Shown here: positions 1 to 60,318 of the stretch, piece after piece
How positions within the stretch are numbered: position 1 is the first letter of the stretch
Layout of the letters: every line of letters begins with the position of its first letter
Notes under the pieces: model-generated
What the model saw: the letters and a program-made list of their open reading frames with translations, nothing else
What the model was told of the DNA's origin: nothing
Database searches by the model: none
Assembly (NCBI GenBank): GCA_963718525.1
Contig: OY970355.1
Location: 2,184,025-2,248,024, forward strand
Length of the DNA: 64,000 nucleotides
DNA from: Candidatus Dormiibacterota bacterium
Lineage (GTDB): Bacteria; Chloroflexota; Dormibacteria; Aeolococcales; Aeolococcaceae
Direction of reading: 5' to 3'
Translations under genes and position numbers: made by a program

Positions 1-384
1 GCTGCAGCCGCCCAGCGCAGCCATGAGATCGTCGACCTTGCGAGTGCTGATGCCGAGCACGTAGGCCTCCTGGACCGCCGCCAGCAGGGCCCGATCAATA
101 CGCCGTCGCGGCTCGAGCAAGGTCGGGAAGAAGCTCCCCGTGCGCAGCCTGGGGATCTGCAGCTCGAGGCGTCCCGAGCCGGTGTCGAGGATCCGCTCCC
201 GATAGCCGTTGCGGTACGTGGTGCGCGTTGAAGCTCGCTCGTGCGGGCCGGCGCCGATCTGGGTGGACGCCTCGGCTTCGATCAAGCGCTGCATAGCGTG
301 TTCGAGGACGCGCCGCAACACGTCCGTGTCTGCGCCCTGGAGTTGCTCGAGCAGTGCCGGGGGCATCATCCTGTTCTGGGCCAT
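1..384 (-). CDS. IS256-family (Mutator-type) transposase, N-terminal part only (window edge)
   Basis: The reverse strand reads MAQNRMMPPALLEQLQGADTDVLRRVLEHAMQRLIEAEASTQIGAGPHERASTRTTYRNGYRERILDTGSGRLELQIP.LRTGSFFPTLLEPRRRIDRALLAAVQEAYVLGISTRKVDDLMAALGGCS. ATG at 384-382 follows an AGGAGA. This is the same protein as 57438+. Confidence 0.85.
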   Translation of the reverse strand, partial: MAQNRMMPPALLEQLQGADTDVLRRVLEHAMQRLIEAEASTQIGAGPHERASTRTTYRNGYRERILDTGSGRLELQIPRLRTGSFFPTLLEPRRRIDRALLAAVQEAYVLGISTRKVDDLMAALGGCS

Positions 385-502
385 CGTGGGTCTCCTGGTT
401 TGGGTAAGAGCTTCCAAGAGAACTCCGCGGTGGCCTTCTTTGTCTACCTCGTCGGCAGCGCTGGGGTCACCCCGGATTTACACCACACTACGGGACATCA
501 CT
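1..502 (-). mobile_element. IS256-family insertion sequence, copy A (partial, runs off the left edge)
   Basis: Bases 1-502 are the reverse complement of the left ~500 nt of the IS256 copy at 57320. I saw one mismatch, a K/R codon. The terminal sequence ...CGGGACATCACT ends at 502. Confidence 0.85.
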
Positions 503-1858: not shown

Positions 1859-3988
1859 ATGAGCTCGCGCACTGCGACACGACTGTCCTGGGGGATCGGC
1901 GGCGTCTGTCTGGTCCTTCTCACCCTCAGCCTCGTGCTGTTGGCGCTCGACTGGAAAGCGATCGACTCGCCGGGGACCGCACAGCTCCCATACTTCATCG
2001 CCGCGCCCATCATCGGAGTCCTCGGTGTGCTGATCGCGGCCCGCCGCCCGAACCATCCGATCGGTTGGTTGCTTCTCGCGATCGCCGCCAGCAACGCGAT
2101 CTCGCTGACTGCCAACTTCGTCGCCATCCGCGGGATATTGAGCGACGCCTCACTCTACGGCTGGGTGGGGTGGGCAGCCTGGGTGTACAACATCACAGGA
2201 GCGATTGGGGCGCTCTTGATCGCTTTTCTTATCCTCGTCTTCCCCGACGGTTGGCTGCTTCCAGGCCGGCGGTGGCGCTGGGCTGTTTGGGTGGTATCGA
2301 CCGCGGCGGCCGTAGCACTTCTTGCGTCGTCAATCGCCGTGACGTCCCAGCAGTTGTCTCCACGCCTCCCCAGCGTTCCTAACCCGGTGGCAGTGGACGC
2401 GCTCAACAACGTCACAAGCGGCAACGGACCGATCAACGTCGGCGTCCTCCTATTGCTCGTTACCGTTCTGGCCGCGGTGGTGGTGCGCCTCCGCCGCTCT
2501 CGGGGCGTGGAACGTATTCAAATGCGCTGGTTCGCATACGTCGCGGCGGCGTCCGTCCTTGTCATCGTCGCCGGATTCTTCCTGAACAATGCCAACGCGA
2601 CGCTCGGCAACAACATCAGTAATGCCGGATTCGGTTTCGGGTTCTATCTGCTCGTGCCCGCGACGATCGGGCTCGCCATCATCAGGTACGGGCTCTACGA
2701 CCTAGACGTCTTCATCAGCCGGACGCTGGTCTACGGGTCGCTGGCGGTGTTCATCACGGCGGTCTATGTGGGCATCGCGGTGGGGGTCGGGGCGCTAGTG
2801 GGGAGCGGCGGCAAGCCCAACCTAGCGTTGTCGATCCTGGCCACGGCGATCGTGGCGATCGGTTTCCAGCCGGTGCGTGAGCGGGTCCAGAAGGTCGCCA
2901 ACCGTTTGGTGTATGGCAAGCGGGCGACGCCCTACGAGGTGTTGAGCGAGTTCTCGGGACGGGTGGCGGAGACGTATGCGGCGGATGAGGTGCTGCCCCG
3001 GATGGCGCAGGTACTTCAGGAAGGAACGGGAGCGGAATCGGCGACGGTATGGCTGCGCGGGACGGAGGAACTGCGGCCCGCGGCAACGTTTCCGAACGGA
3101 GTGGGAACCCACGTTGCAGTGCCGATGCGCAACGGAACGCTGCCCGCCCTAGAGGAGGCCACCCTAGCGGTTGAGGTTCGCCATCAAGGCGAACTGCTTG
3201 GCGCTCTGAGCGTGACCAAGCGCCGTGGCGAGGCGCTGACGCCGATCGAGCAGAAGCTCGTCGACGACCTCGCGCATCAGGCGGGGCTGGTGCTCAAGAA
3301 CGTGGGTCTGAGCGCCGACCTGCAGACGCGGCTCGATGAATTGCGCGCCTCGCGACAGCGCTTGGTGAGCGCTCAGGACGTGGAGCGGCGCCGTCTGGAG
3401 CGCAACCTCCACGACGGCGCCCAGCAGCATCTGGTCGCCTTGAAAGTGAAACTGGGACTGGCGGAGTTGCTCCTGGCACGGGATCCCGAGAAGGCTGCCG
3501 TGACCCTAGAGCAGCTCAAGAGCGACGCCGACGAAGCCCTGGAGGCGCTGCGCGACCTGGCCCGAGGGATCTACCCCCCGCTGCTCGCCGACAAGGGTCT
3601 GGTGGTTGCCCTCGAATCCCAGGCGCGCAAGGCGACGGTGCCAGTGCGCGTGGAATCGGCGGGGGTCGCGCGCTACGCGCAGGACGTCGAGGCGACGGTG
3701 TATTTCTGCGTGCTCGAAGCGCTGCAGAACGTGCAGAAATATGCGGGGGCATCTCAGGTTGTGGTGCGCCTGCGTGCTGGCACCGATCCCGCCACTTTGA
3801 CCTTCGAGGTGGAGGATGACGGCACGGGATTCGAGACCGCGACCGCCCGCAAGGGTGCTGGGCTCACCAACATGAACGATCGGGTGGACGCGCTCGGCGG
3901 TCAGGTGCAGGTGATCTCTCGCCCAGGTGCTGGGACTACCGTGTCCGGCGATTTGCCGCTGCAAGAACCCGTCGCGGCAGTGACCTAA
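1859..3988 (+). CDS. Sensor histidine kinase, NarL-partner type (multi-TM N-terminus, GAF-like region, HisKA_3, HATPase_c)
   Basis: H-box LERNLHDGAQQHLVAL, N-box EALQNVQKYA, and G-boxes DDGTGF and GAGLTNM. Several N-terminal hydrophobic helices. ATG 1859 aligns with the start of the paralog at 18405; GTG 1838 is an alternative start. No response regulator is adjacent. Confidence 0.85.
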   Translation: MSSRTATRLSWGIGGVCLVLLTLSLVLLALDWKAIDSPGTAQLPYFIAAPIIGVLGVLIAARRPNHPIGWLLLAIAASNAISLTANFVAIRGILSDASLYGWVGWAAWVYNITGAIGALLIAFLILVFPDGWLLPGRRWRWAVWVVSTAAAVALLASSIAVTSQQLSPRLPSVPNPVAVDALNNVTSGNGPINVGVLLLLVTVLAAVVVRLRRSRGVERIQMRWFAYVAAASVLVIVAGFFLNNANATLGNNISNAGFGFGFYLLVPATIGLAIIRYGLYDLDVFISRTLVYGSLAVFITAVYVGIAVGVGALVGSGGKPNLALSILATAIVAIGFQPVRERVQKVANRLVYGKRATPYEVLSEFSGRVAETYAADEVLPRMAQVLQEGTGAESATVWLRGTEELRPAATFPNGVGTHVAVPMRNGTLPALEEATLAVEVRHQGELLGALSVTKRRGEALTPIEQKLVDDLAHQAGLVLKNVGLSADLQTRLDELRASRQRLVSAQDVERRRLERNLHDGAQQHLVALKVKLGLAELLLARDPEKAAVTLEQLKSDADEALEALRDLARGIYPPLLADKGLVVALESQARKATVPVRVESAGVARYAQDVEATVYFCVLEALQNVQKYAGASQVVVRLRAGTDPATLTFEVEDDGTGFETATARKGAGLTNMNDRVDALGGQVQVISRPGAGTTVSGDLPLQEPVAAVT

Positions 3989-4067
3989 CGATTACGTCGT
4001 CCCTCGACGTTCTGGCGCCCAACGCAAGGAGGGCGTAAGGTGAGCGTCGCTCCTAGGAAGCCGGTGG

Positions 4068-4417
4068 ATGTCGACGCGATTCCAATGGAATCCAATCATC
4101 ACGCTCTAGTCATCATTCCAACCAATTCGCCACGAAACCACTCAAAGTCGAACTCACCCCGCATCGGGAAATAAGTGCTGGTCTGGGGGACCAGGGGTCG
4201 CAGGTTCGAGTCCTGTCTCCCCGACGGACGCGCAAGTTGAATTCACAGCGAGCGGTTGCGCGGTGCGTTAGGCCCCAGCGGCGAACGGGGTGTAGTGCTC
4301 TAACCAGGAATGATGACTTTTCCTGCAGAAGGCATCATTCCCCGCGGTTGAGGCCGGATGCCGCTGCTCATATGAAGAGATTGTGGCAGTCCAGCGCATA
4401 CATATCGCTTACAGTTT
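4068..4417 (+). repeat. tRNA-Pro(GGG) 3'-half repeat unit, copy 1 (type A downstream arm)
   Basis: Core 4178-4224 is CTGGTCTGGGGGACCAGGGGTCGCAGGTTCGAGTCCTGTCTCCCCGA. The upstream arm starts ATGTCGACGCGATTCCAATGGAATCCA. The downstream arm aligns with copies 5 and 8 as far as CGCTTACAGTTT. Confidence 0.9.
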
Positions 4418-4578
4418 GGAAGGCCTCGACCCGCTGTGAAAGTCCGGCAGATACTTGACATCGCAGGTCCAAGAGATGCTTGACGGTGTGCGGCGCGTCC
4501 GCCTGATGCTTGACACAACCGACCTCCCTCCGGTCCGCTCGTCCGCAAGGACTGAGCGCCATCGGAGGGACCAGGTTC

Positions 4579-4640
4579 GTGCTTGTGGAGTTGAACGTGG
4601 TGGAACAGCGCTACCGGGTCGTCCTGGAGACCTATCTCGG
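4579..4640 (+). pseudogene. Remnant of an IS481-like transposase N-terminus
   Basis: It reads VLVELNVVEQRYRVVLE, which I recognise as the N-terminal motif of a class of actinobacterial IS481-family transposases. The frame then degenerates and is cut by the IS481 insertion at 4745. Confidence 0.35.
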
Positions 4641-4744
4641 TGTCGCCGCGCGACTCCCGAGACTCAATGGCCAAGCTCTTGTTCTATGGGATCGGGAGAC
4701 ATCAAGCTGATTGAGTCCGGTGGCTCGAAGAGCCGCTACCTAGA

Positions 4745-5773
4745 TGTAGTGCCCATAGAGGTTGTTGACAAAGAGAGAGCCCCGCGGCTGAGTTTGGGTT
4801 GTTGAAATCCACCCAGACGGAGGCTCTCCGGTGTCCCATCCTAAGGCGGTACTCACCCCAGTAGGCAGGCTGATTCTGGTTCAGCGAATTGCCCAAGGAC
4901 GTCCCGCGGCGCACGTCGCCGGCGAGATGGGCGTGTCCCGGGCGACGGCGTACAAGTGGTGGCATCGGTACGTCCGAGAGGGCGAGGCGGGTCTGCTCGA
5001 TCGGAGCTCCCGGCCGCTGCGCAGCCCACGGCGGACATCGGCGCGGGTGGAGCGCCGGATCGAGGCTTTGCGACGCCGCACCAAGCTCGGTCCAGTCCGG
5101 ATCGCCGTCCGCCTGCAGATGCCGGCCTCGACCGTCCATCGCGTGTTGGTGCGCCGGCAGTTGAATCGGCTGAGTTGGATGGATCGACCCACGGGACGCG
5201 TGATTCGTCGCTACGAGCACGAACACCCGGGCGACCTGGTCCACGTCGATGTCAAGAAGCTGGGGCGGATCCCGCCCGGCGGTGGCTGGCGTGTGCACGG
5301 GCGCCTCGGACATCCCTCCACCGGTGTCGGCTACGACTACATCCACTCCGCGGTGGACGATCACTCACGGCTTGCCTACTCGGAGATCTGCAGCGACGAA
5401 AAAGGTCCGACTGCCGCTGCATTCTGGGTTCGTGCCACGGGGTTCTTCGCGGCCCACGGCATCGCGGTGCAACGTGTGCTCACCGACAACGCCTTCGCCT
5501 ACCGGAACTCCGTCATCTTCCGAGCCGCGGTGCTCCAAAGTGGCGCGGTGCAGCGCTTCACGCAGCCGCGCCGGCCTCAGACCAACGGCAAGGTCGAGCG
5601 CTTCAACCGGACCTTGCTTGAAGAATGGGCATACGTTCGACCCTATGCCTCAAATCAGCGACGCGCCCAGGCCTTGACGACCTGGCTGCACATCTACAAC
5701 CATCACCGTGCCCACACCAGTCTCGGTCAGCTCCCACCCATCTCACGCCTCAACAACGTGTCTGGGCATTACA
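4745..5773 (+). mobile_element. IS481-family insertion sequence (1029 bp) with CCTAGA target-site duplication
   Basis: Terminal inverted repeats are TGTAGTGCCCATAGAGGTTGTTGA (left) and TGTAATGCCCAGACACGTTGTTGA (reverse complement of the right end). It is flanked by CCTAGA at 4739-4744 and 5774-5779. NCTAGN duplication is characteristic of IS481. Confidence 0.85.
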
Positions 5774-56677: not shown

Positions 56678-57110
56678 GGCTTCATTCTCCCTCGTGGTTG
56701 GCCGCTGGCATCGAGCCGAGCGATCGTCCCAAAAGTAGTTGCGGCGAATCACGACCGGTCGAGCCGACTTGCGGGGAAGGCGGGTTTCGATGGTGGAGCA
56801 GGGCGCCATGTCAACTCCCTTGAGAAGCGAGCTTGGTCTCGCTACGGCCAGGGTCGGAATACGAACCAGCATTGACCTGGGGACCAGGTTTCGGGGCTCT
56901 GCACGAGGCGCGATACGACGTTTGTTCGTTGAAAGTCGGCTGGCGTCCAGGCGGGATTCGGACTTAGACGCTACCGAACGGCGGCCCATGGGTCCTGTCA
57001 CCGGACCCGCAGCGGCCAAGAGTTTGACGGCGCCGACGGTCACTTCGGCGCGCGGGATGCCCGCGGACGAACGATCAGCCCGGAAGAGGCGATCAGTTCG
57101 GGGGGCGCTG

Positions 57111-57319
57111 GCTGTCGAAGCGAATCCACCGGATTCCAACAAGCACGATCTAGCCGTCATTCCAACCATTTCCCGACGAAAGCCCTCCAACTCGAACTCA
57201 ATCCGCATCGGGAAATAAGGACTAGTCTGGGGGACCAGGAGTAGCAGGTTCGAGTCCTGTCTCCCCGATTCGCAGCCCTTTGCAGGGCAGTGCAGCCTTG
57301 TCCAGCCAATTCCACCCCC
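57111..57319 (+). repeat. tRNA-Pro(GGG) 3'-half repeat unit, copy 7 (type B), left part, interrupted by IS256
   Basis: Core 57222-57268 has two substitutions (CCAGGAGTAGCAGG). The downstream arm ...CAGCCTTGTCCAGCCAATTCCACCCCC is cut at 57319. Confidence 0.85.
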
Positions 57320-57437
57320 AGTGATGTCCCGTAGTGTGGTGTAAATCCGGGGTGACCCCAGCGCTGCCGACGAGGTAGACAAAGAAGGCCACCGCGGAGT
57401 TCTCTTGGAAGCTCTTACCCAAACCAGGAGACCCACG

Positions 57438-58493
57438 ATGGCCCAGAACAGGATGATGCCCCCGGCACTGCTCGAGCAACTCCAGGGCGCAGACACGGAC
57501 GTGTTGCGGCGCGTCCTCGAACACGCTATGCAGCGCTTGATCGAAGCCGAGGCGTCCACCCAGATCGGCGCCGGCCCGCACGAGCGAGCTTCAACGCGCA
57601 CCACGTACCGCAACGGCTATCGGGAGCGGATCCTCGACACCGGCTCGGGACGCCTCGAGCTGCAGATCCCCAAGCTGCGCACGGGGAGCTTCTTCCCGAC
57701 CTTGCTCGAGCCGCGACGGCGTATTGATCGGGCCCTGCTGGCGGCGGTCCAGGAGGCCTACGTGCTCGGCATCAGCACTCGCAAGGTCGACGATCTCATG
57801 GCTGCGCTGGGCGGCTGCAGCATCAGTCGCAGCGAGGTGAGCAGGATCTGCGCCCTGCTCGACGAGGAGCTCGCCGAGTTCCGGGAGCGCCCCCTCGATG
57901 AGCCGTACCCGTACGTGTGGTTCGACGCCACGTACGAGAAGGTGCGTCAGGGCGCCCGCATCGTCAGCCAGGCGGCGGTGGTGGCGGTGGGCGTGCGCGA
58001 CACCGGCGAGAAGAGCGTGCTCGGCCTCGCCATTGGTGCCAGCGAGACCGAGGCCTTCTGGCTGGAGTTCTGCCGCAGCCTGGCCCGGCGCGGGCTGAGC
58101 GGCGTACAGCTGGTCATCTCCGACGCCCACGAAGGGCTGCGCAGTGCCTTGTCCCAGGTGTTCGCCGGCGCGACCTGGCAGCGCTGCAAGGTGCACTTCC
58201 TCCGCAACGTGGCCAGCGCGGTCCCCAAGCTGCACGCGCCGGCGGTGCTCGCGGTGGTGAAGTCGATCTTCCTGCAGCCCACTCGCGAGACTTCCCGTGA
58301 CGCCGTGAACCACGCGCTCAGCGTCTTGGAGCCACGCTTCCCAACTGTGGCTGCCAAGCTCCGCGCCGCTGAGGCCGATGTGCTCGCCTATCTGGACTTC
58401 CCGGTCGACCACTGGCGCTCGATCTCTTCGACCAATGCCATCGAGCGCGTCAACGCCGAGCTCGATCGTCGCGCCAAGGTGGTGGGCATCTTC
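57438..58493 (+). pseudogene. IS256-family transposase, N-terminal 352 codons (interrupted by IS110)
   Basis: MAQNRMMPPALLEQL...WLEFCRSLARRGLSGVQLVISDAHEGL...STNAIERVNAELDRRAKVVGIF. Similarity to IS256 transposases then stops abruptly. Confidence 0.85.
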
Positions 58494-58722
58494 CTGCGTC
58501 TGTACGCTCTCCCGTGGCAGTGGCGGAAGCACCGCTGTTGCTGCGAGGCTCCCGTGGGGCCGAGGGTGACCCGGCATTTTTCTGTCGAGCCCTCGGGCTC
58601 TGACCTGGTTAGGGCCAGTCCCCTCGGTCTTCGCGGGTGGCCGAGTGACCTCATAGCGGCGTGAATACTGAACGGCAGGAATGTCCGAGGCCATCCACCC
58701 ATCAACACCACGGAGGGTCGGC
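58494..58722 (+). ncRNA. Candidate IS110 bridge RNA (left non-coding end)
   Basis: The left non-coding end is 229 nt against an 11-nt right end. It contains CGCTGTTG (58533-58540), complementary to the right target flank CAACAGCG (59792-59799). It also contains CATAGCGGCG (58652-58661), identical to the IS right terminus (59779-59788). The structure was not modelled. Confidence 0.4.
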
Positions 58723-59778
58723 ATGGTCATCATCGGCATCGATTGCCACACAAGGGTTCATGTGGCTGCAGCCATTGACGGATCGGGGCAGGTCTGTGCG
58801 CGCTTCACAGCGGGTGCCAAGGCTGAGGAGCTCGAAGCGCTCACAAGGTGGGCGTGCCAACAAGCAGCCGGCCTGATCGCCGTCGAGGGCGCACGAGGCT
58901 TTGGCCTCGCGCTCACTCGATGCCTCCTCGCCGCTGGCTTGGAGGTCGTCGATGTCCCAACGCACATGACCGCTGACGGGCGCCGTCAGAGCCGCCGTCC
59001 GGGAAAGGACGATGAGAGCGATGCGGTGGTCATCGCGCGAGTTGCACTACGTGAACACGACCTGCCGCGGTTGCGTCCGGCGCATCTTGACTCGGATCTC
59101 AAACTGCTGGTGGACGCACGCGATCAGGTTGTTGCAGAAGGCACTCGTGTACGCAACCGGCTGCATGCGCTGCTGCTCACCGTGTCGCCCGGCTACCGCG
59201 ATCACACCGGCGCTCTGTCGAGCAAGCGCGCACTCATCGTCGCTCGTCGCTTGGTGCTCCGAGCACGAGCGGCAGATCCGGTTCGCTGCCGCCTGGCCCT
59301 TGCAGCCATTCGCCAACTCCACGCCATCGATGCTGAAGCAGCCGGGCTGGAGGGCGAGATCAAACAAGCCGTGAGCGCAAGGCACCCGAAGCAGCTGCTC
59401 GCCATTTGCGGTGTGAGCACGCTGGTGGCCGGCAAGCTCCTCGGTGAGGCCCACGACATCACACGCTTCCCGACGGCGGCGTCGTTCGCAGCCCACGCTG
59501 GCGCCGCCCCGCTTCCGGCATCGAGCGGCGTCACGCGGCGACACCGTCTCAACCGAGGCGGCAACCGTCAACTCAACCGAGCCCTCTTCACGATCGCCAT
59601 GGTGCAGGCACGCTGGCACCCTGGAGCGGTCGCCTATCTGGAGCGAAAACGTGGCGAAGGCAAGCGACCCGCCGAAGCGCGACGCTGCCTCATGCGCCAC
59701 CTTGCGGGTGTCGTCCACCGCGCCATGTTCCTCGACGCGACCGCGGTCAGCGCGAGTTCGGCCATGCCTGCCGCTTGA
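58723..59778 (+). CDS. IS110-family transposase/recombinase (DEDD RuvC-like N-terminal domain plus Tnp C-terminal domain)
   Basis: MVIIGIDCHTRVHVAAAID...IAVEGARGFG...VVDVP...DDESDAVVIARVAL...LLAICGVSTLVAGKLLGE...AGAAPLPASSG...RLNRGGNRQLNRALF. ATG 58723 follows GGAGGG. ORF 58681 is an alternative start. Confidence 0.9.
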   Translation: MVIIGIDCHTRVHVAAAIDGSGQVCARFTAGAKAEELEALTRWACQQAAGLIAVEGARGFGLALTRCLLAAGLEVVDVPTHMTADGRRQSRRPGKDDESDAVVIARVALREHDLPRLRPAHLDSDLKLLVDARDQVVAEGTRVRNRLHALLLTVSPGYRDHTGALSSKRALIVARRLVLRARAADPVRCRLALAAIRQLHAIDAEAAGLEGEIKQAVSARHPKQLLAICGVSTLVAGKLLGEAHDITRFPTAASFAAHAGAAPLPASSGVTRRHRLNRGGNRQLNRALFTIAMVQARWHPGAVAYLERKRGEGKRPAEARRCLMRHLAGVVHRAMFLDATAVSASSAMPAA

Positions 59779-59789
59779 CATAGCGGCGC

Positions 59790-59957
59790 CCCAACAGCGC
59801 CTCACTGCTGCGGCTGTTCACCGCGGTGCTCCAGGACCAGCACGACGAGTGGCAGGACGGCCGCCGTCACTTCAGTCAGCAGTCGATGGCTCGCGTTTTG
59901 CACCCCGACGGTCCGCCCTTGCTCACCAACCCACTCACGGAGGGACTGGTCGCGTAG
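59790..59957 (+). pseudogene. IS256-family transposase, C-terminal fragment
   Basis: PNSASLLRLFTAVLQDQHDEWQDGRRHFSQQSMARVLHPDGPPLLTNPLTEGLVA* is the typical IS256 transposase C-terminus. Confidence 0.8.
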
Positions 59958-60020
59958 TTCACCGACGTTGTGAGAACTCCACCGAATTCACACCACTACC
60001 GGGGACTTGACCCCACCCCC

Positions 60021-60100
60021 TTCCAACTTTCGGGGATCAGTCACTGTGCAGGGACTAGTCCTTATTCGCTAATTGATGGCCTTTCCTGCAAAACCACTCT
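60021..60100 (+). repeat. tRNA-Pro(GGG) 3'-half repeat unit, copy 7, right part of the downstream arm
   Basis: TTCCAACTTTCGGGGATCAGTCACTGTGCAGGGACTAGTCCTTATTCGCTAATTGATGGCCTTTCCTGCAAAACCACT aligns with copy 4 (28921-28994). Confidence 0.8.
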
Positions 60101-60318
60101 AATGTCGTGCGGCCAAACGGCGATGTCCCGAGCGGGGCGCGACGCTCGCTTCGGGCCATTGCTTGGCGCGCCGCGGTCGGAAATGCGGCTGCGACTGAAC
60201 ATCCGTTCACCCGGATTGAACGCCTTGATGAGTGACGCCAAGGCGACCGGAGTGATGCTCTAGCAACCGGCCCTACCGTACTCGGCCTTAATCGGCGGCG
60301 AGAGCAAAGGAGGTAATC

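Follow-up and report, generated by a model that had tools for sequence, protein, structure and literature searches.

The window considered here, the whole of a 64,000-nucleotide stretch of contig OY970355.1 from a Candidatus Dormiibacterota bacterium, has one mobile element lodged inside another, an insertion sequence (IS) of the IS110 group within the transposase gene of an IS256-family element, and it is the long non-coding left end of the former, with the RNA guide segments it appears to specify, that is the subject of what follows. The host IS256-family element (57320-60012, plus strand, as are the other features of the two nested elements) amounts to 1397 bp when the insert is subtracted, has imperfect terminal inverted repeats and is flanked, on direct reading, by an 8-bp target duplication, CCACCCCC, at 57312-57319 and 60013-60020. 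Its Mutator-family transposase gene is in two parts, a 5′ part (57405-58493; PF00872, E 2.7e-116) whose last residues are ...AKVVGIF, and a 3′ part (59790-59957) that begins PNSASLLRLF... and ends with the stop codon TAG at 59955-59957. The Pfam profile Transposase_mut (PF00872) is split cleanly between them, positions 21-355 lying to the left of the insert and 356-378 to its right. Deletion of 58494-59789 (1296 nt) fuses ...AKVVGIF with PNSASLLRLF..., and an earlier note on this DNA, made from its letters alone, had both the coordinates and the restoration of the frame exactly right. In the same genome there is a second, uninterrupted copy of the IS256 element, 100% identical, the left 500 nt of which are the minus strand of window 1-502. 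In it the transposase gene is continuous and the insertion point reads GGCATCTTCCCCAACAGCG, so giving the empty target site as GGCATCTT-CC-CCAACAGCG. On comparison of filled and empty sites there is no duplication beyond one shared dinucleotide, and the only ambiguity about the insert boundary is that same CC (58493-58494 = 59789-59790). The CC at both junctions behaves as a core dinucleotide; its left copy is at 58493-58494, where TC stands in the second genomic copy of the IS110-group element and in two of its relatives (L031 and L032), and its right copy, known from direct reading and from the empty site, at 59789-59790.

The IS110-group element proper (58495-59788) consists of a left end (58495-58722), a recombinase gene and a right end (59779-59788), and with one copy of the core it measures 1296 bp. 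Judged by its sequence, 58495-59788 together with its CC core is an intact IS110-group insertion sequence, and probably an active one. The recombinase gene (58723-59778, 351 aa) is preceded by the ribosome-binding site GGAGGG, and its product carries PF01548 and PF02371 (Pfam) and scores 164.5 bits, with a cut-off of 140, against the NCBIfam profile NF033542, ‘IS110 family RNA-guided transposase’. Together with the Pfam results and the identical empty copy, this bears out the earlier proposal that an IS110-group element has inserted into the transposase gene of an IS256 element. The DEDD residues are visible in the translation (D7, E55, D97, D100), and the Tnp domain aligns with those of two recombinases whose structures are known, from ISCro4 and from IS621 of E. 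coli (PDB 8WT6; Durrant et al. 2024, PMC11208160; Hiraizumi et al. 2024, PMC11208158), the catalytic Ser-Gly being retained as S268-G269, the counterpart of which in IS621 is S241/G242 (PMC11208158). An in-frame ATG at 58681 was considered as the start codon and rejected; it is within conserved RNA, in the donor loop described below, and is not conserved in relatives, so that the start is ATG 58723, behind GGAGGG. With that start the non-coding left end is 229 nt long, against only 11 nt for the right end, as had been proposed. Terminal inverted repeats are absent, the ends TGCGTCTG... and ...ATAGCGGCG being unrelated on direct comparison.

What does so long a left end do? Its RNA structure emerged from alignment only. 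When 15 left ends are aligned, two conserved stem-loops stand out in which 99.2% of 615 cells are paired and both sides have changed at 11 pairs, and when, as a control, the partners are slid by 1-3 columns, pairing falls to 36-50% with 0-2 pairs showing both-side changes. The first of the two, the target-binding stem-loop (58556-58631), has an outer stem, 58556-58570/58618-58631, and an inner one, 58584-58591/58596-58604; the donor-binding stem-loop (58635-58696) has an outer stem, 58635-58642/58689-58696, plus GAC/GUC; and in the left-end alignment each has compensatory changes at 5 pairs. Such changes, at 11 stem pairs in all, point to RNA structure. Before these two lies a 5′ stem-loop (58513-58545) of about -21 kcal/mol, which is made of different letters in most relatives and in the window has GGAAG in its apical loop and CGCTGTTG in its 3′ arm. 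A covariance model (R1) built from both conserved stem-loops was used on relatives, and in those of 37-45% protein identity it matches over its full length, immediately before the recombinase gene. The left end is thus predicted to encode a bridge RNA of the IS621 type, roughly 58513-58697, and the earlier suggestion to that effect now has conserved and covarying stems behind it. Read-through of the truncated IS256 gene adds 57 unrelated residues (LRLYALPWQW...DLIAA) over window positions 58494-58664 (+) before the stop TGA at 58665-58667; as it crosses the bridge-RNA region, the IS256 promoter would also yield left-end RNA when the element is integrated.

The donor side is where the match between RNA and DNA is most telling. 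In IS621 the two half-sites of the donor are supplied by the termini of the element, the left one by the final letters of its right end and the right one by the first letters of its left end (PMC11208160, PMC11208158). Here the candidate left donor guide (LDG), CAUAGCGGCG at 58652-58661, belongs to the third stem-loop, where it lies on the 5′ side of the internal loop, and it is identical to the 10 nt with which the right end finishes. When the left end was put through 3000-5000 Markov shuffles, this identity had P = 0.0013. The final two letters of the guide also form part of an invariant 3-bp stem, CGU/ACG. In every lineage the LDG equals the right end and changes with it, the variants being CGGCG, AGGCG, GAGC and AAGC. 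Relatives with the LDG GATAGCGGCG have GATAGCGGCG as right end, those with AGAGCGGCG have AGAGCGGCG, and even in distant relatives the LDGs ATAGAGGCG, ATAGGAGC and ATAGAAGC each agree with their own right end. The candidate right donor guide (RDG), GCAGG at 58675-58679, is the reverse complement of the core CC plus the first left-end letters TGC. Where the left end instead starts with TGT the RDG is ACAGG, and the pair formed by columns 5 and 191 is C-G in 9 cases, U-A in 6 and broken in 0. The earlier note had proposed CATAGCGGCG (58652-58661) as a donor guide, and its position in the donor-binding loop, its low probability by chance and the way it tracks the right ends all favour its being the real left donor guide.

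For the target, the corresponding segments are predicted in the loop of the second stem-loop, which is placed with good confidence at 58571-58617. The left target guide (LTG), GGCAUUUUUC at 58573-58582, on the 5′ side of that internal loop, reads like the top strand GGCATCTT followed by CC (or by TC in the second copy), and with G.U allowed all 10 of its positions pair with the bottom strand; taken alone, the match has P 0.028. On the 3′ side of the loop the right target guide (RTG), GUUAGGG at 58608-58614, pairs with top-strand CC plus CCAAC with one A-C mismatch. In 6 relatives the RTG is GUUGGGG, a perfect match, and there is U.G pairing with the CCGAC variants of the target. An extension of the RTG past GUU was tried and discarded, the three letters 5′ of it being variable and having no complementarity to the flank. 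The target never changes within the close clade, and in consequence conservation of LTG and RTG there does not by itself constitute covariation. For this reason the covariance model was applied to distant relatives, the loop sides of which were taken from its alignment. In one of them (L010) the loop sides match that element's own flanks, TCCGCCTCC on the left and CGGGGATG on the right. The own-flank matches, left and right, are 11 nt and 8 nt in L011, 7 nt and 8 nt in L009, and 6 nt and 10 nt in L006, the last of these with wobble. Among distant relatives with different targets the own-flank match has a mean of 6.75 nt versus 4.3-4.8 nt for cross matches. L005-L011 serve only to show that the loop matches its own flanks. 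These comparisons argue that GGCAUUUUUC (58573-58582) and GUUAGGG (58608-58614), in the second stem-loop, are the real target guides.

How wide is the range of targets? Relatives found by scanning genome and metagenome collections form a graded series, from 95% to 59% protein identity. The left junctions that could be read, from >15 lineages, are all at GG(G/C)ATCTT-(C/T)C, within a transposase gene of the IS256 family and at its VGIF|PN codons, and the right ends finish A(T/G/A)AGCGGCG-CC and are followed in most by CC(A/G)AC. The flanks encode ...(V/S)VGIF | PN(R/S/T)... and diverge widely outside that block, from which it follows that there are many different IS256-family hosts. The right flanks of two relatives (L051 and L050), CC-CTTCTGGAG... 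and CC-TCGACCGAC... respectively, are unlike the usual IS256 PN(R/S) continuation, and these two may have inserted off target or may sit in hosts that are rearranged. Three copies in genome G019 (L012, L014 and L015; 37-38% identity) stand directly after a complete tRNA gene, and the 5′ side of their target loop (GTCTCCCGCTG) repeats the tRNA 3′ end; the model score there is weak, 11.5 bits, and they would be an IS110 lineage aimed at the end of a tRNA gene. In the genome of the window itself three more IS256-type sites are empty (L018, G000:C1:742019-743191; L020, G000:C1:738728-739018; L017, G000:C1:2183353-2184526), the empty-site sequences being GGCATCTT-TC-CCAACACCG, GGCATCTT-CC-CCAACACCG and one identical to the window target. 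The occupancy of such sites is thus 2 of 5, there being exactly two copies of the IS110-group element in the genome, 100% identical to each other. The second (G000:C1:2470512-2471807) interrupts the same codon in a different IS256 subtype, 90% identical to the first, so that the earlier expectation that other copies would share the target held when it was checked, both for this copy and for the relatives.

The history of that second copy is less simple. To the left of it the variant sites of its host IS256, including the T that adjoins the element, are all of the ‘90%’ subtype, and from +36 on the right they are so again. In the stretch immediately to its right (L001:2797-2832, G000:C1:2471808-2471843) the 5 variant sites from +8 to +24 are of the window's subtype. 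Simple transposition does not explain this right flank. It has the look of gene conversion that ran on from the identical IS110, or else of a one-ended site-specific event that homology then resolved. Could homologous recombination between IS256 elements have transferred the whole copy from the one in the window, so that it does not represent a separate RNA-guided insertion? The 100% identity of the two IS110 copies is what that would give, as are 5 variant sites of window type within an otherwise different (90%) IS256. However, the base directly to the left of the second copy is T, not C, and like 30-odd variant sites further left it is of the other IS256 type, which means that a homologous crossover would need to have fallen within 1 nt of the element; moreover, in L031 the same IS256 type as hosts the second copy has been struck directly by a related element. 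Homologous recombination is accordingly judged an improbable, though by no means negligible, origin for the copy as a whole; its own insertion, followed by gene conversion from the identical IS110 into the right flank, is more likely.

The target guides had at first been sought elsewhere. The earlier note drew attention to three short matches within the left end, all of which are present: CGCTGTTG at 58533-58540, GGAAG at 58525-58529, and CATAGCGGCG at 58652-58661 (identical to 59779-59788). When their positions in the structure were checked, the last proved to be in the donor loop, but the other two are both in the 5′ hairpin, CGCTGTTG in its 3′ arm and GGAAG in its apical loop, a placement that the note itself had given as a ground for refutation. 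A reading in which GGAAG (58525-58529) and CGCUGUUG (58533-58540) are the target guides, pairing with CTTCC on the left and with CAACAGCG 3 nt past the core on the right, has in its favour that the 8-nt complementarity is exact and that both occupied sites in the genome have CAACAGCG, while two empty IS256 sites have CAACACCG. But an empty site identical to the window's exists too, so that emptiness is no sign of a poor target, and an 8-nt match of this sort is to be expected by chance, in Markov shuffles of the left end, with P = 0.08-0.25 (0.076 in its own class, right-flank reverse complement, and 0.25 over four classes). The match lies 3 nt off the core and shares bases with the stretch that the conserved RTG reads. 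GGAAG carries no weight, and its strand sense is wrong for an LTG, since the LTG of IS621 pairs with the bottom strand and thus reads like the top (PMC11208160). Furthermore the two segments share one stable hairpin, as its loop and 3′ arm, the shape of which is kept in relatives with different letters, and the arm does not track the right target flank in either of the relatives that bear on this: in L031, where the DNA of the IS110 differs by 7%, the arm is CGTCGTTG and the adjoining flank CAACACCG, a match of 6/8, and in L032 the arm is CGCCCGTG, again beside CAACACCG. That version of the target guides is largely refuted, and very little credence is left for it. Just as far-fetched is the proposal that the left end is a mere leader or protein-binding site, that the protein alone picks the site and that the guide-like matches are inherited end sequences, for although the target is constant in the close clade, where conservation of LTG and RTG could reflect any constraint, there are the compensatory changes in 11 stem pairs which point to RNA structure, donor guides that change together with the element ends, distant relatives whose loops match their own, differing flanks, and the experimental demonstration that this family of recombinases is RNA-guided (PMC11208160).

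With these set aside, we regard it as highly probable that an intact IS110-group insertion sequence, probably an active one, makes up the insert and that it has an IS621-type bridge RNA, in which LTG and RTG read the target and LDG and RDG the joint between the two ends of the element. The target read by the second stem-loop, through its loop, would be ATCTT-YC-CCAAC, with LTG on the bottom strand and RTG on the top strand; these letters encode Ile-Phe-Pro-Asn of the VGIFPN motif conserved in IS256-family transposases. The loop of the third stem-loop would read the joined ends CATAGCGGCG-CC-TGC via the LDG at 58652-58661 and the RDG at 58675-58679. If the work on IS621 is a guide, the element would excise as a circle, the joint of right end and left end would rebuild the promoter TTGACA, 18 nt, TACGCT, and the DEDD/Ser recombinase would exchange strands adjoining the core. 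The anatomy, the conserved RNA stems, the matches between guides and DNA with their covariation, and the target fixed across the clade are all direct observations.

Some finer features fit this scheme in part. The -35-like hexamer TTGACA (59775-59780) overlaps the stop codon of the recombinase gene, and its TTGAC is invariant in all relatives; the -10-like TACGCT (58503-58508) would follow 18 nt after it in the predicted circle, by analogy with IS621 (PMC11208158), and a promoter rebuilt at the joint would put the transcription start near the foot of the 5′ hairpin. On direct reading and with the published handshake model (PMC11208158), CC at 58615-58616 would be the handshake positions of the target loop. 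The first position fits both loops (C58615 with the last G of the right end, A58680 with the target T), and the second fits the donor loop only; variable cases that could show covariation are too few. The AA at 58680-58681, after the RDG, can pair with the TT that precedes the target core.

Several results weigh on the other side. A single-sequence fold of the left end is no better than those of shuffles (z = -1.0), and a scan of 57000-60300 with Rfam 15, with E up to 10, returned chance-level matches and no bridge-RNA family. In the window the A-C mismatch in the middle of the 7-nt RTG leaves 3+3 pairs only, and the second core base is unpaired with the LDG. Within the close clade the constancy of the target means that covariation between target and guide there is nil. 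For the distant relatives L005-L011 the exact core register cannot be fixed, their LTG, RTG and RDG registers being in conflict and empty sites lacking. As to the promoter, TAnnnT is kept in L032 and L034, members of the nearest groups, and not in more distant groups.

The core itself deserves comment. The donor core is CC and the target core is CC, or TC where the Phe codon is TTT. Opposite the variable core base the LTG has U and the RTG has G, both capable of wobble, and at the synonymous third-codon positions of Ile-Phe-Pro-Asn the LTG carries U and the RTG G/A. At the loci with a TC core (the second genomic copy, L031 and L032) the left junction is TC and the right junction CC in 3 of 3, a pattern that is no proof, coming as it does from three cases that are possibly not all independent. 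With cleavage 3′ of the core, as in IS621 (PMC11208158), it would be what the top strand yields, and it is in line with the top-strand insertion proposed in a 2025 bioRxiv preprint (10.1101/2025.10.25.684509). It is tempting, if rather speculative, to suppose that the guides are tuned to a coding target, G.U wobble accepting the ATC/ATT, TTC/TTT and AAC/GAC of the IS256 motif, and that the TC/CC asymmetry is a natural footprint of fixation of the top strand only.

Two observations stand apart from the above. In two relatives of 72-73% identity (L034:1286-2614 and L035:3-1283) the recombinase match runs to some 1330 nt for 343 residues, so that the gene has an insertion of about 300 nt or is interrupted otherwise. 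At window 57209-57268 (+), some 45 nt to the left of the IS256 duplication, there is a tRNA-like 3′ fragment (RF00005, 20.1 bits with a gathering score of 29), which probably belongs to the window's repeat units.

The known mechanism is unchanged by these findings. Their interest is in the natural readout of all four guide segments in a bridge RNA distant from that of IS621, with empty sites, filled sites and graded relatives at hand, and in a whole actinobacterial clade that lives on a single block of conserved codons in the transposase genes of the IS256 family. The VGIF|PN site is multi-copy, dispensable and itself mobile, and so the IS110 can ride on IS256. For the engineering of bridge recombinases there are leads in the wobble pairs tolerated, the non-CT core and the left/right asymmetry of the core.

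How, then, does the element compare with what is known? Like IS621, it has a recombinase in which a DEDD RuvC-like domain is joined to a Tnp domain that carries a Ser-Gly loop, a long left end, a very short right end, and a core dinucleotide at both junctions. The bridge RNA of IS621 is 177 nt long with a 5′ stem-loop, a target loop and a donor loop (PMC11208160; PMC11208158), and the predicted RNA of about 185 nt here has likewise a 5′ stem-loop followed by target-binding and donor-binding stem-loops; in both, it is the bottom strand that the loops read with their 5′ sides and the top strand with their 3′ sides. A handshake at the first position would be possible in both loops here too, and the putative -35 box and -10-like box are placed, as in IS621, in the right and the left end respectively. 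Unlike IS621, to which its protein is only weakly similar (E about 1e-6, in the Tnp domain only), the present element is known from sequence alone. Its core is CC, with YC in targets, instead of CT, which sets it outside the IS621 subgroup and leaves the family assignment unaffected. Further, the RDG is only 5 nt long, many members have an internal mismatch in the RTG, and the target is not a repetitive extragenic palindrome (REP) but a coding motif of another insertion sequence. Plasmid pYJNG of Microbacterium sp. YJN-G has a relative (NZ_CP060403.1, 72015-73076, WP_193599387.1; 61% protein identity) whose bridge RNA is the same, scoring 141.5 bits with model R1, and which occupies the same site in an IS256-type gene (...RRTDSVGIF|PNRDAIIRL). 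That copy differs in being of the group with left end TGTGT and RDG ACAGG, and in its right end, GATAGCGGCG; it is annotated as ‘IS110 family transposase’ only, and the host IS256 gene is missing from the PLSDB feature table, which omits pseudogenes. A repeated and conserved sequence of another mobile element is also the landing site in cases mentioned in the literature cited for IS621, IS1383 in the inverted repeats of IS1384 and IS4321/IS5075 in the terminal repeats of the Tn21 family (refs 13 and 10 of PMC11208160). As far as they are described there, those elements, of which IS4321/IS5075 belong to the IS1111 group, unlike the element here, strike terminal repeats, whereas the present clade strikes the VGIF|PN codons inside the transposase gene, thereby truncating it. 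An IS110-group element with an IS621-type bridge RNA that lands on mobile elements is thus of a known kind; what is new is the landing site, conserved codons of IS256-family transposases.

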